Source of the DNA: Eledone cirrhosa
Taxonomy: Eukaryota
Assembly: GCA_964016885.1 (NCBI GenBank)
Contig: OZ024743.1
Location: forward strand, 105,090,001 to 105,154,000
DNA length: 64,000 nucleotides
Direction of reading: 5' to 3'
Under the pieces are notes generated by a model. The model worked only from the letters and a program-made list of their open reading frames with translations, was not told the DNA's origin and did not search any database. Every line of letters begins with the position of its first letter. Position 1 is the stretch's first letter. The translations under genes and the position numbers were made by a program. Shown piece after piece: positions 32,749-44,750 of the stretch.

Positions 32749-34570
32749 TGGGATAACAAGTTATCATTATAGGTAATCCAGTTAGAGGTGTGAGTACTCT
32801 GCGTCTTGGATAGTTTTAACGTACGGCTTTGTTTGGCTCAACAAGATGCTTCCATAGTTATGCAGCAGAATTAGACAACGAGCACCAAAAATAACCGAAG
32901 AGAACACTAAAATTAAGGATTCCCCAAAACTAGAGAAGATCCAGAGACAGAAAGTACCTATGGTTCAATCCAATATTCAACTCCTCTATAAAAACTAAAC
33001 TACCTTCTACATTCTTTAAACTAATAGACAAGCACTTCCCCGCACTACACAAATACCATAAAATCTTTAATAGAAAAACCATAAAACTTTCCTACTCTAC
33101 TGCAGCCAACATAGAATCGCACATACGTAAGATCAACCACAAAAATATCTCTAAAGAAATTAACCTACCAACATGCACCATAGCACCAAATACAAAACAC
33201 AAACACATAACAACATCACAACCACAAACGCATCAGAACGCATCACAACAAAACATTAATAGGTCTAAATCACAACGCACTCACACTTACAAAACCGCAA
33301 CGATGAACCTGTACAAAGTAAAACCTCAAATTGTAATTGCTACCTACCGGATAAATGCCCACTACGGAATAGATGCCTGGATACGAGTATGGTTTACCTG
33401 TGTACTGTAAATTCAGGCAACTCTACTTGGCACTCCATAGGTTCCACGGCTGGGGATTTCAAGAAAAGGTGGTACGTCCACAGACACAGCCTGAAGAACC
33501 GTGAACTGGAGAACTCTACGACGTTCACCAATAAAATCTGGCAGCTTAAGGACAAAAACCTAGAATATAAGATTAGCTGGTCAAAATTATCGGTAGCAAA
33601 AGCCCACAGCAACGGAATGTCCCACTGCGGGCTTTGTAATTTAGAACTACTACATATCTTAAGTTACGATGTGATGCTACTTAACAGCAAAATAGAAATA
33701 TCAATTTTCTGTAGGCATAAAATAGCTACTAGATTCACAAACTTCAAACCACCATGATTTGAACCAGCAATCCAAAAATTAGTACTGAACCACGTAGATT
33801 TTAACATATAGAATACACACCATCGCACTGCTATTAGCTATCAAACGACCAACTGGTAACTGGATCATAAATCTCTGAACATTTATTTCACCCTCTCTCC
33901 CTGAAACAGCACAAACCCCGTTAAGATAGAACAATCAGCAAAACATTTAGAACAAGCGTTTATCAAATGTCTCGTCATCCCTAGCCCATACATATCATAC
34001 ATGTATCCTCCAATTAATCTCTAATTTACTGTCTTTTCTTTTATCTGTCACTACGTCGGACCCTCTACACGTATCTATGTACATCTCGAATCTGGTTTCT
34101 CCTGTTAGCACAAAACCCACCAATGAATCCTTATAAGAACACTTACTCAAAACTAATACTAACATACTCAAAAACTAATACTAAAGTACTATGTACTTAC
34201 ACGTTCTCATTTATTTATTTATTTATTTATATTTTCCATTTTTTCATTTTCTTATTTTTTAATGTACCCTATCTTATATTTTTCTTTTTACTTTTTACAT
34301 CTGTAACTTCTCTATCTATTTACCATATATGTTTTATTATTGATGTTATTGTTTTGATTATATTCTTTTTTTCTATATAAGTCTTGCCTCGAGTGAATTA
34401 CTTTCATATCTACGTACGCTGATGTGTTGACCAGAGGTAAATAATGTATTGGAGATCGAATGACGCAACCTCAAGCGATTAGCGAACTCTAGACTCACCT
34501 GATCAACGAAACAATTGTCAGTACTTTAAATAAAGCCCGTATTGTACAGCCAACCACCATGTTACGCTTC
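32749..34570 (+). mobile_element. 5'-truncated Penelope-like element (GIY-YIG part, 3' UTR, pLTR)
   Basis: LWFNPIFN...LIDKHFP...KIFNRKTIKLSYS from ~32930, then VYLCTV...SIGSTAGDFKKRWYVHRHS...CGLCNLE...CRHK (33389-33757). A hammerhead-like motif lies at 34414-34524. Confidence 0.85.
34414..34524 (+). ncRNA. Hammerhead-like motif with extended stem II
   Basis: gtacg CTGATGT gttgaccag [~65 nt] ctgatcaac GAAA caattg TC agtac, followed by aaataaa. The core has one deviation (A9 to U). Confidence 0.55.
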
Positions 34571-34971
34571 ATCCTTTATATATATATATACATATATATA
34601 TATATATATATATATATATATATATATGTATATTATATATAGGGGCATGAGAGTGAGATCCATCATCTCGACAGTAGTCGACGAGTGATGATGATGATAT
34701 TATATATAGAGTTATACACTCAAAATAGTCTTTTACAATTAAATAGCTCAAAGAAAGAAATATTTTCGAGCCGTGTAATACAAATGAATATATGATAGGG
34801 ATAAACACTGATACGATTATAGATGTGTTCGCATTGCAAATGACCAAGTTAGTTAGATTGAAAAATACTAATTAAAATAATACGGTTTGCCTGTCTCGAT
34901 TTAAAATAATAAATCAATAAAAACAAACCTATATTGACAATAGCCGTGATACCCGGACAAATTTTAAATTT

Positions 34972-36985
34972 GTTTTTCTATTAAAGATTTTATGATATTT
35001 ATGAATTTTAGGGATGTGTTTGTTACCCAGTGTGAAGAAAGTGTAAGGTAGTTATGTTTTTATAGAGGAGTTAAACACTGGATTGAACCATAAGTAGTTT
35101 CTATCTCTGCATCTTCTATAGAAAAAACTATCAAACTTTCATACTCCACTGCCAACAACATAGAATCGCACATAGATAAAATTAACTATAAAAGAATTTA
35201 TAATACAAGTAGCCCGCAAATAAGTACCATAACACCAAATAAAAAACATAAGCATATAATATCATCACAACCAAACACATGTCTGAACACATCACCACAA
35301 TACATCAACAAACCCAATTCTCAGCCCGTACATAGCAACCTACAAAACCATATCGAAGAACCGGCACATAGAAAAGCATCTAAATGTAACTGTCATCTAC
35401 TTGATAAATACCCATTACAAAATAGATGCATGGAGACAAATATAGTATACCTATGTACTATAAATTCAGGTAGCTTAGCATGGCATTACATTGGTTCCAC
35501 AGCTGGAGAGTTTAAGAAAAGGTGGTACGTACATCGACACTCTATGACTAGCAGGAATCTCTCAAAGACAACGACTCTCGCCAATAAAATCTGGCAACTC
35601 AGGGATGCAAACATGGAATATAAAATCAGCTAGACGAAGCTATCAAAAACAATAGCCTATCAAATTGGTATGCGCCACTGCGGTCTCTGTAATATGGAAC
35701 CTTTCCAAATTTTAAATTACAACAAAATGCTTCTTAACAGTAAAATTGAAAGAATTATTGTCTGTCGGCATAAAACGGCGACCAAATTTGAGAACTTTAG
35801 ACCAGCTTAATTTCATCTTATCTATTCTATAACCCAAATTGTACCACTTAGATCTATTATAATATCACATTATTATCATCATCATCATCATCATCATCAT
35901 TATTATAATTGTCATCATCTATCAATGAACAACATCAAAACCTCTTATATTTACATTCTTATTTTATATATCTCTATCTTTCACTCTCTATCTCTATATT
36001 TCTCTCCCTAAATTTATTTCATCTCTGGCATTTTATTTTATCATATAATATAACTTACAACTAATTAATTATTTTATTTATTAAAATAACCAATACAAAC
36101 TTAAATATATTTAACATTATCATATTTATACCTTCGTATCTCTATATTTTAGCCACTCTCAAAAACCACTTTCAATAATCTTAATATGTTTAAATTTTCT
36201 TCGCACATTTTTACTGTTTTACTTATTTATTTTCATATTTTCATTTTTCGTTTTTCATACCATTTTGTACCATTTTGTATCATATGGGATGTAATTTATT
36301 TATTTATTTATATATTTATTTACATTTATTCATGTATTAACGTTTCATTTATTGTTGATATCATTATTTTCCCTCTATTTTTCTTTCTCTCCTACATTAT
36401 TTCTCCTTATGCTTGTCTCTCCTCATTCTATCATCTTTTCTCCATATATTTTCTTTCTCTCCATATTTTGCTCTGTATCCATTTCTCCTTTTTCTTCTTC
36501 TTTCTCTTTTTCTTTTTCTTTTTGCTTTTCCTTTCTTTCTTTCCTTTATCTATCTTCCTTTCTTTCTTTTTTTCTCTCTCTATCTTTATTATTAATATTA
36601 TTATTGATGATGTAATCTGAATTTGTAAATTTGACGGTTATATATATTTTTGTAACAGTTTCTGATGACCTGATTGAGCTAGCATCGTATTTGAAATTGA
36701 GTGGCACTGCTTCTAGTGTTCAGCAATTTTTAGACAACTTAATCAGAGGAATAATTGTTAGAGTGTAAATAAATCCCCTTTTTTGTACTGTTGAACATGT
36801 TATTCTTCACTATTTCAATTTTATTATTCCGAGATAAACTTACATAGGAATAAAAGTGAAATAATAAACTTGTCATCTACGTAAACCTCTTGTTGAGTCA
36901 AACAACGCCGTACGTTAAAGCTATCCATAATAATAAGTATTCACTACCTCTAATTGGATTACTTATAACGATAATTTGTTATCCC
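34972..36985 (+). mobile_element. Second diverged copy of the same Penelope-like family, with 5' inversion
   Basis: GIY-YIG remnant IVYLCTI...YIGSTAGEFKKRWYVHRHS (35430-35810, internal stop). The upstream ORF piece is inverted at 34972-35118, and a degenerate hammerhead lies at 36655-36770. Confidence 0.82.
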
Positions 36986-43310: not shown

Positions 43311-43849
43311 TTATTATTATTATTATTATTATTATTATTATTATTATTATTATTATTATTATTACTATATATGTATATATATATATATATATATATTTAT
43401 ATATATATATATATATGCACACACACACACACACACACACACACACACACACACACACACACACACACACACACACACACACACACACACACACACACAC
43501 ACACACACACACACACACACACACACACGCACACACATATATACATATATATATAACATTATGCACGTGACTATGTGAAGTGTATCAGCTCCTCTCTAAA
43601 TCTCCACCTATAGCTTTCAATAGGCTTCAACTCTTTGAAAACTAGGTTTTTAGTTGTTTTGTTTTAATAATGCAGCAGATACTGTAACAAGAGAAATCAA
43701 GACTATGTGTATGATATATATATATATATATATATATATATATATATATATATATATATATATATATATATATATATATATATATATATATATATATATA
43801 TGCATATATATATACATAATGTTATATATATATATGTATGTATATATAC

Positions 43850-44750
43850 GGGGTAACAAATTATTGTTATAGGTAGTCCACTTAAGTGTAGTCCAGTTAT
43901 GGTACTCCGGGTAGTGGATGATATCAACGCTTGGCTAAGTTTGACTCAACAAGGCGTTTCCATAGTGATATTACGAGTACGCTGTAATTCCTATGTTGCA
44001 AAGACTTGGAGTAATGATAAATCAGGAAAGAAGAGTGACACGGTTTGCTATACAAAAAAGTTTTTAATCTCATTGCTGGCAATTGTTTTTCTGAACTGGT
44101 AGGTCTAGAGATCGCTACCCGCTTATTTTCACGTTATTCGATCACCAATACAAAGTTATAACCAGTCAATTCATCGGAGCTTGTGAGAATGAAAAAAATA
44201 TACAGGCATGGCTACTATATATAGTAGTAATGGCATTAAATCAGAACAATAACAACAATACTAACAATGCTAGCAATAACTTATATGAAATAATCACAAC
44301 ATCAATCTAGGTGGGAAGTATAGTATATCTACGATTTTAGCGTGTAAAACTAGCTGACATGAGGCAGATGTATAAAATTGACATGTAAAAGCTGTCAAGG
44401 GGTGTATTATATCTAGTGTAAAGATAAGCCGGTGGCTTTAAACACTGGAGGTCTGGTGGCCGTAAGAATCTTTATTATCTGATAGATGAAGAATTTATCA
44501 CTGTAGTGAGGATAGTAATATTTGTGTGGTCTATATTAGATGAAAGGGTTGTCTAGCTTTCTCATCATCAATAACATACATGTATAAGACAACATTAACA
44601 GAGTAGCAATATAATGGGCAAGTTAATACAGAGGTTAAGGAGGCAATATATATATATACATACATGCACACAAACACACTTTGTATTGGTGATCGAATAA
44701 CGTGAAAATATTCAGAGAAACAATTGTCAGCAATGAGATTAAAAACATAT
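43850..44750 (-). mobile_element. Non-coding Penelope-like pLTR remnant with inverted partial duplicate
   Basis: The tail at 43850-43960 is homologous to 32749-32856 and 36885-36985. A hammerhead lies at 44073-44181 (-), with an inverted, internally deleted copy at 44679-44747 (+). Confidence 0.72.
44073..44181 (-). ncRNA. Degenerate hammerhead motif with extended stem II
   Basis: agct CCGATGA attgactggt [~60 nt] accagttcag aaAAA caattg cc agc. The inverted copy preserves GAAA caattg TC agc. Confidence 0.55.

Follow-up and report, generated by a model that had tools for sequence, protein, structure and literature searches.

Three hammerhead ribozyme motifs in a 64,000-nucleotide stretch of the Eledone cirrhosa genome (contig OZ024743.1, positions 105,090,001 to 105,154,000, forward strand; here called the window) carry a stem II that is drawn out into an arm of about 80 bases. 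Judged by their protein motifs and insertion targets, the elements that bear these ribozymes belong to the Hydra clade of Penelope-like elements (PLEs). The arm covaries between subfamilies and is very probably a selected RNA structure. Its 49-base inner domain may be where the element's own reverse transcriptase-endonuclease docks, a reading that draws on analogy and to which we give a probability of roughly 0.45. The analysis covered the DNA sequence of this one genome (3.0 Gb).

Hammerhead motifs and their genomic copies

The motifs and their inner domains are located as follows.

34414..34524, + strand: hammerhead copy 1, with stem I, the 5' core at 34419-34425 (A9U) and stem II at 34426-34507
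34446..34494, + strand: conserved 49-nt inner domain of stem II, copy 1
36655..36770, + strand: hammerhead copy 2, with the 5' core at 36662-36668, a stem II of 79 nt and the 3' core at 36748-36759
36687..36735, + strand: 49-nt inner domain of copy 2, homologous to those of copies 1 and 3
44073..44181, - strand: hammerhead copy 3, with the 5' core at 44177-44171 (U4C, family-wide), a stem II of 81 nt and the 3' core at 44089-44078
44103..44151, - strand: 49-nt inner domain of copy 3

In copy 1, the 3' core and the palindromic stem III occupy 34508-34519, and cleavage is predicted after 34519 (GUC). The spacing between the cores is 82, 79 and 81 nt in copies 1, 2 and 3. A sequence-only reading of the window had described three type I hammerheads of pseudo-long terminal repeats (pLTRs) with a palindromic stem III. 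This description was upheld: both cores were located in each copy, and the type I topology was found, with three helices, an open stem I and an NUH triplet.

The pattern is well beyond chance. Exact cores with an AATT loop and a spacer of 62-90 nt gave 1,011 matches in the genome and none in the reversed control; the same pattern gave 27 matches with spacers of 41-61 nt and 178 with spacers of 10-40 nt (controls 0). When the ends of the inner domain and the 3' core were searched with no 5' core required, 6,411 exact matches were obtained (control 0). A DNA search of the genome returned 2,430, 1,920 and 2,581 candidates for copies 1 to 3, and the 40 scored per copy had 92-100% identity. The motif is thus real and abundant, with thousands of genomic copies. 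A covariance model (R1) recovered all three window copies, which belong to its training set, and nothing else in the window. The prediction that standard searches would miss the motif was borne out, as neither hammerhead nor other families were reported by Rfam for the window (among 150 of 203 rows) or in local searches of the motifs. This is expected with a stem II of about 80 nt. A metagenome pattern scan gave no match with both stems (0/118), and no relative was found in viral contigs.

The cores were surveyed in ten subfamilies of 4-30 copies each, a partly biased sample since the motifs used for assignment overlapped the core. The consensus CUGANGA/GAAA was retained, with three departures at 11 core positions over the ten subfamilies (U4C twice, A9U once). 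Among 21 rows picked by hand from a search that did not require the 5' core, U4C was also seen in 10, and it is therefore a recurrent change. The earlier statement that each window copy has core mutations needs to be divided. The changes are present; however, A9U of copy 1 (26 of its 29 best matches) and U4C of copy 3 (28/28) are family-wide. Copies 2 and 3 have defects in GAAA, in stem III and at 16.1 that are private to them, the 3' core being intact in 25 of 28 relatives of each. These defects comprise A13G and C15.2U in copy 2, whose family has a GUU triplet, and G12A and U16.1C in copy 3. Thus, the cores are nearly intact family-wide and most defects in the window are private decay. Activity of natural U4C and A9U hammerhead variants is taken here as general background. 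Stem I is 3-7 bp long and differs in sequence in 9 of the 10 subfamilies, and the cleavage triplets are GUC, GUU and GUA. A U-U at the bottom of stem II, like the GUU and GUA triplets, had been considered a sign of decay; this was dropped, both being ordinary in the Hydra rows of File S2 of PMC8557442.

In all ten subfamilies, the monomer hammerhead was evaluated as higher in energy than the best fold, and the double-hammerhead fold lay below two monomer folds in three of them. Slow or assisted cleavage would therefore be expected from these models.

A covarying arm in stem II

Stem II is 79-83 nt long across subfamilies. Its outer helix, of 5-10 bp, leads through an asymmetric, A-rich internal loop to about 18 pairs. 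This inner part has an invariant base, GUAUU/UAGAC, as well as a bulged A and a tip of 8 nt that varies. The 49-column domain aligns without gaps in 16 subfamily representatives, with 16 invariant columns that include the unpaired A3, A14 and G37. Homology had been noticed between two of the inserts and in fact extends to all three. Indeed, the third insert, which had been called unrelated in sequence, contains the same 49-nt domain in register, and a bridging subfamily (G) connects the inserts of subfamilies A and B. The inner helix quoted at that time joined the 5' strand of copy 1 to the 3' strand of copy 3, whereas each copy has its own register. The more general proposal, a lineage-wide extra domain of conserved structure within stem II, agrees with the gap-free alignment and with the covariation.

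Two-sided changes were found at 6 of the 18 model pairs, above the 2.1 expected from 20,000 column permutations (P 0.002), and the observed pair count on 11 rows was reached by 3 of 500 shuffles. On 16 rows, there were 23 two-sided cells versus 7.8, and 91% of cells were paired versus 30-46% in slid registers. On the topology of the endonuclease (EN) tree, 25 changes were counted at paired sites, of which 3 break pairs, against 9.7-12.9 in simulations (P at most 0.0013). All eight changes on the stem branch of subfamily B keep or gain a pair, and pair 20:31 passed from G-C through G-U to A-U, with the intermediate retained in subfamily G. Subfamily H, which was seen after the model had been fixed, has new U-A pairs at 7:44 and 19:32 in 3/3 copies. 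Regarding the strand, nine G-U pair types were observed versus one A-C, and the sense strand folds better than the antisense strand in 9 of 10 subfamilies. Mean identity between subfamilies was 0.80 at paired positions, 0.62 at unpaired positions and 0.58 in the upstream untranslated region (UTR). Single copies of the domain folded weakly better than shuffles (z of -2.15, -1.09 and -1.32 for copies 1-3); thus, the support for structure comes from covariation and not from energy.

Several observations weigh against a selected structure. The 18 pairs of the model were chosen by eye in the very sequences on which it was tested. Invariant pairs give no support for structure, new valid pair types were not in excess (P 0.18), and 16 of 500 shuffles reached the number of pairs with two-sided change on 16 rows. 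Two branches account for most of the two-sided changes, and RNAalifold predicted 6 of the 18 model pairs. Subfamily H breaks pair 17:35 in 3/3 copies, and small held-out groups share breaks at 12:39 (C-A), 13:38 (A-C) and 21:30 (C-A or C-U), in two copies each, which weakens the excess of G-U over A-C. Finally, conservation of the domain (0.75) is matched by that of the 60 nt past the cut site (0.76), so the arm is not uniquely constrained.

A tertiary contact had been proposed for the insert. As a Watson-Crick contact this was not sustained, since a pseudoknot scan of the ten subfamilies revealed no recurring complement between loop and flank. Fast hammerheads have a tertiary contact between loops 1 and 2; no Watson-Crick pairing of this kind was seen here. 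A pseudoknot reportedly attenuates the satellite RNA hammerhead of sCYDV-RPV; no counterpart was found in the arm. Two other roles were rejected. In 8 of 10 subfamilies each of the three frames has stops, and the open reading frame (ORF) begins 280 nt downstream, neither of which fits a coding role. The hallmarks of a selenocysteine insertion sequence (SECIS) element are an AUGA/GA quartet and an in-frame UGA in the ORF; the domain has no such quartet, and the 794-aa frame of the parent element is open under the standard code.

The hammerheads otherwise resemble described ones. As in the Hydra-clade elements (Craig et al. 2021, PMC8557442, File S2), they are of type I, lie in the pLTR and have a short, nearly palindromic stem III; a stem II foot with a mismatch or an unpaired base, the GUC, GUU and GUA triplets, the (TA)n targets and the protein motifs are also shared. 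However, in 26/26 of those published Hydra rows stem II has 3-7 bp and a loop of 3-10 nt (at most about 25 nt), against 79-83 nt with a covarying domain here. Metazoan PLEs have minimal hammerheads (Cervera and de la Pena 2014, PMC4209133) that share the dimer-type palindromic stem III, the weak stem I and the thousands of solo copies, but their helix II reaches 6-8 bp at most and, in the sections consulted, is described without an inserted domain. Long loops 2 (35 and 29 nt) are marked as deviating in the Selaginella PLE-X1 rows of PMC8557442 (File S2). These belong to EN-less plant elements, and the shorter insert is tabulated there as a loop without structure or covariation. In the natural sCYDV-RPV (+) hammerhead, internal loops interrupt a long helix II, as here, although that helix has 13 bp and belongs to a viral satellite RNA (PMC1636495). 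No account of animal PLEs with a long, structured stem II was found in the literature consulted, the supplements of PMC4209133 being outside the search. Thus, a long loop II has minor precedents, and the covarying arm of about 80 nt on a known PLE hammerhead is new.

Possible roles of the arm

The PLE hammerhead cuts poorly alone and is dispensable for insertion in vitro, according to the sections consulted of PMC4209133 and PMC11167929. We favor the reading in which the arm is an RNA handle for the element's protein, in one clade of Hydra-type PLEs. Helix positions covary while the GUAUU/UAGAC base, the bulged A and the A14/G37 loop are fixed, a pattern expected of a recognition site; its GUA/GAC part presumably resembles a loop E type motif. 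Monomers would be mostly misfolded, so that cleavage would be slow or would require dimers formed through the palindromic stem III. Most long copies extend about 215 nt beyond the cut site, which suggests that uncut RNA was the template. Protein bound at the invariant base of the arm would then select the element's RNA, and could help or delay folding of the ribozyme.

The analogy is with the PLE of Anolis. The hammerhead of that element (Poseidon, PAc) needs the element's protein in vitro, cutting only when the protein is bound, and its template is likewise uncut RNA (PMC11167929). Together with the fixed, recognition-like base, this favors docking over its rivals. The two systems also differ. 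The Anolis element belongs to another clade, has a short stem II inside the ORF, and its binding region was mapped mostly downstream (PMC11167929). Moreover, its ORF begins at stem II and the minimal insertion RNA covers +20 to +172 of that ORF, which means that insertion there can do without most of stem II; this speaks against docking through the arm.

Alternatively, the arm might act on the ribozyme itself, free of protein, by folding early and stabilizing or slowing the hammerhead, or by docking on stem I in a non-canonical way. The short stem I, the unfavorable monomer energies, an internal loop, rich in A, some 9 bp away from the core and the long, interrupted helix II of sCYDV-RPV (PMC1636495) would all fit such a role. 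We nevertheless consider it rather unlikely, as the loop and flanks lack a recurring complement, the tip loop varies freely in sequence, and a double hammerhead is better than two monomers in just 3 of 10 subfamilies.

It is also conceivable, if unlikely, that the arm is a functionless expansion, acquired by fold-back or capture and tolerated, in which pairing is kept merely against misfolding of the ribozyme or of the 3' end. Stems II of unrelated sequence are long in three further repeat families of the same genome (D, 72-82 nt; E, 59 nt; F, 83-84 nt), which suggests that such stems arise easily. Inverted copies occur frequently in these elements, and short-stem Hydra families, to which the 178 matches with spacers of 10-40 nt testify, amplify here too. 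Against this stand the fixed length and invariant unpaired bases of the domain. In addition, no deletion subfamily was amplified among the matches listed (100 of the 178 at 10-40 nt and 27/27 at 41-61 nt): the deletion derivatives there are each single, no two being alike. Purely neutral drift is rejected by the low number of broken pairs (3 in 25 changes).

Finally, the conserved segment could be a DNA or splicing signal, either a 47-nt GT-AG intron (positions 1-47) or an internal pLTR promoter. Both GT and YAG are invariant at the domain ends, TATAA-like and TGACGCA words occur in several subfamilies, and PLE pLTRs contain promoters and 5' UTR introns (PMC4209133, PMC8557442). This is very unlikely. 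The AC that follows AG is equally invariant and pairs with GT, so that pairing explains the intron-like ends, and the covariation is internal; moreover, the 5' site is weak. Subfamilies B and H lose the promoter-like words and keep the pairing. No precisely spliced copy was found among 100 listed short-spacer matches, a weak argument given that PLEs retain introns. In three contig sets (of uncertain kind, from one study), subfamily alleles were seen and no joint at the 47-nt segment, which gives no evidence on splicing or expression.

A covarying domain that is fixed on the hammerhead of a clade with intact young copies makes a well-defined subject for experiments on binding and cleavage.

Parent element, neighboring repeats and other long-stem families

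All three window hammerheads lie in PLE 3' ends that are followed by (TA)n. The associated features are:

32934..33757, + strand: frameshifted 3' ORF part of a Hydra-clade PLE, subfamily A, with the C-terminus of the reverse transcriptase (RT), a CxCX5C linker and a GIY-YIG endonuclease (motifs as in PMC8557442)
34529..34534, + strand: AATAAA hexamer of copy 1, 10 nt past the predicted cleavage site
35094..35807, + strand: broken Hydra-clade 3' ORF part, subfamily B, with linker and GIY-YIG
36760..36985, + strand: pLTR remainder past the cleavage site of copy 2, with AATAAA at 36768 and a conserved tail of about 220 nt, then (TA)n
43849..44072, - strand: pLTR remainder of copy 3, with ATTAAA at 44068, terminating in (TA)n
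44679..44745, + strand: inverted, internally deleted piece of the copy-3 hammerhead, in which the 5' half of the inner domain is joined to an intact 3' core

The element of copy 1 ends near 34577 in (TA)n. From the end of the broken GIY-YIG ORF to the hammerhead, the distance is about 750 nt for copy 1 and 940 nt for copy 2. The inverted fragment sits at the 5'-truncated end of the copy-3 element, the truncation being within the UTR.

The lineage had been named Penelope; the motifs assign these elements to the Hydra clade and not to Penelope proper. This clade is characterized by an RWK motif, DKT replacing DKG, the CxCX5C linker, CxxC/CxH close to the end of the EN, and (TA)n targets (PMC8557442). 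A protein search gave frames of about 800 codons, and 14/14 fetched loci, picked for length, had frames of at least 790. One of these loci (L407) has a single 794-aa ORF with an RT and, at its C-terminal end, a GIY-YIG endonuclease, in which the catalytic words were identified by eye. Its protein contains RWK, DKT and the terminal CxxC and CxH, with Y at the third C of the CxCX5C linker. The window ORF at 33269-33757 has CxCX5C, CxxC and CxH and no CCHH, and the EN region of 32934..33757 is 67% identical to an intact relative. Pfam gave no match for the 794-aa protein and a weak GIY-YIG match for a window relative (E 0.004). In the EN tree, where the rows are unnamed homologs, the 15 arm-bearing rows form one clade (100/100, stem 1.22) apart from the short-stem families, in a tree whose bootstrap is not settled and whose outgroups are on long branches.

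In the tandem of L407, the hammerhead lies 774 nt past the stop and the cut site 280 nt before the ATG. AATAAA or ATTAAA is found at +9/+10 of the cut site in 10/10 subfamilies. The subfamily of this locus (C7, L404-L417) is young, with intact 794-aa ORFs in partial tandems; its hammerheads have U4C, a non-palindromic AAAT loop and a GUA triplet, yet keep the arm. At L407:2355-2640, the cut site overlaps a word resembling a 5' splice site (GTAAGC; GTCAGT in subfamily A). A TTTAG word resembling a 3' site precedes the ATG by about 40 nt, and several ATGs lie between the two words, a possible 5' UTR intron.

Long stems II occur in at least three families besides the arm-bearing clade, so the trait is not a single-lineage oddity. 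Model R1 gave no match in 22 loci of D, E, F and the short families. A search with another palindrome gave 942 matches (control 15), of which family F makes up most of those listed. This family (L201-L230, e.g. L202:1501-1602) is abundant, with intact cores and a TCGA palindrome, and ends in (TA)n; its stem II is branched into two hairpins, and its parent protein was not found. A link of family F to a nearby endonuclease and a fixed 5' end were both considered and proved wrong. In family D (L110, L141, L143, L146, L147, L176-L200), stem II is a nearly continuous rod, and the flanks resemble a short-stem family of 20 nt, which suggests a separate extension. Family E (L161-L173, L437) is old, and its stem II is closed by G-C; at L437, the end of a GIY-YIG ORF of the CCHH type lies 1,579 nt upstream of the hammerhead, a candidate link. 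At L418, a short-stem hammerhead of the U3-A8 type with a GTAC palindrome lies 390 nt past another Hydra-like EN end.

Published PLE descriptors use spacers of 7-17 nt (PMC8557442). Since such descriptors miss thousands of motifs in one genome, claims that some PLE groups lack hammerheads may need rechecking. In File S5 of the same paper, two Naiad consensus ends (nematode records) contain by eye both cores, with a stem II of 4-5 bp and a loop of 35-40 nt. They may be hammerheads with a long loop, in a group for which canonical ones are stated to be absent. A broader idea, which we regard as doubtful although worth stating, is that PLE stem II arms are family-specific, recruit the element's protein and gate cleavage as ribozyme-protein switches. 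They would have arisen several times in this genome, and because of them standard searches would overlook many PLE ribozymes, some of the "half-core" Naiad cases among them.

Other repeats were also seen in the window. Short-stem (20 nt) Hydra hammerheads with U4C lie at 32067-32108 (+) and about 28410 (-), tied to an ORF remnant at 29965-31465. Between copies 2 and 3, a 1,141-codon open frame at 38836-42261 (-) belongs to another non-LTR retrotransposon (RVT_1, E 3e-23). Helitron-like ORF pieces are found at 49744-52241 (+; Helitron_like_N, E 2e-13).

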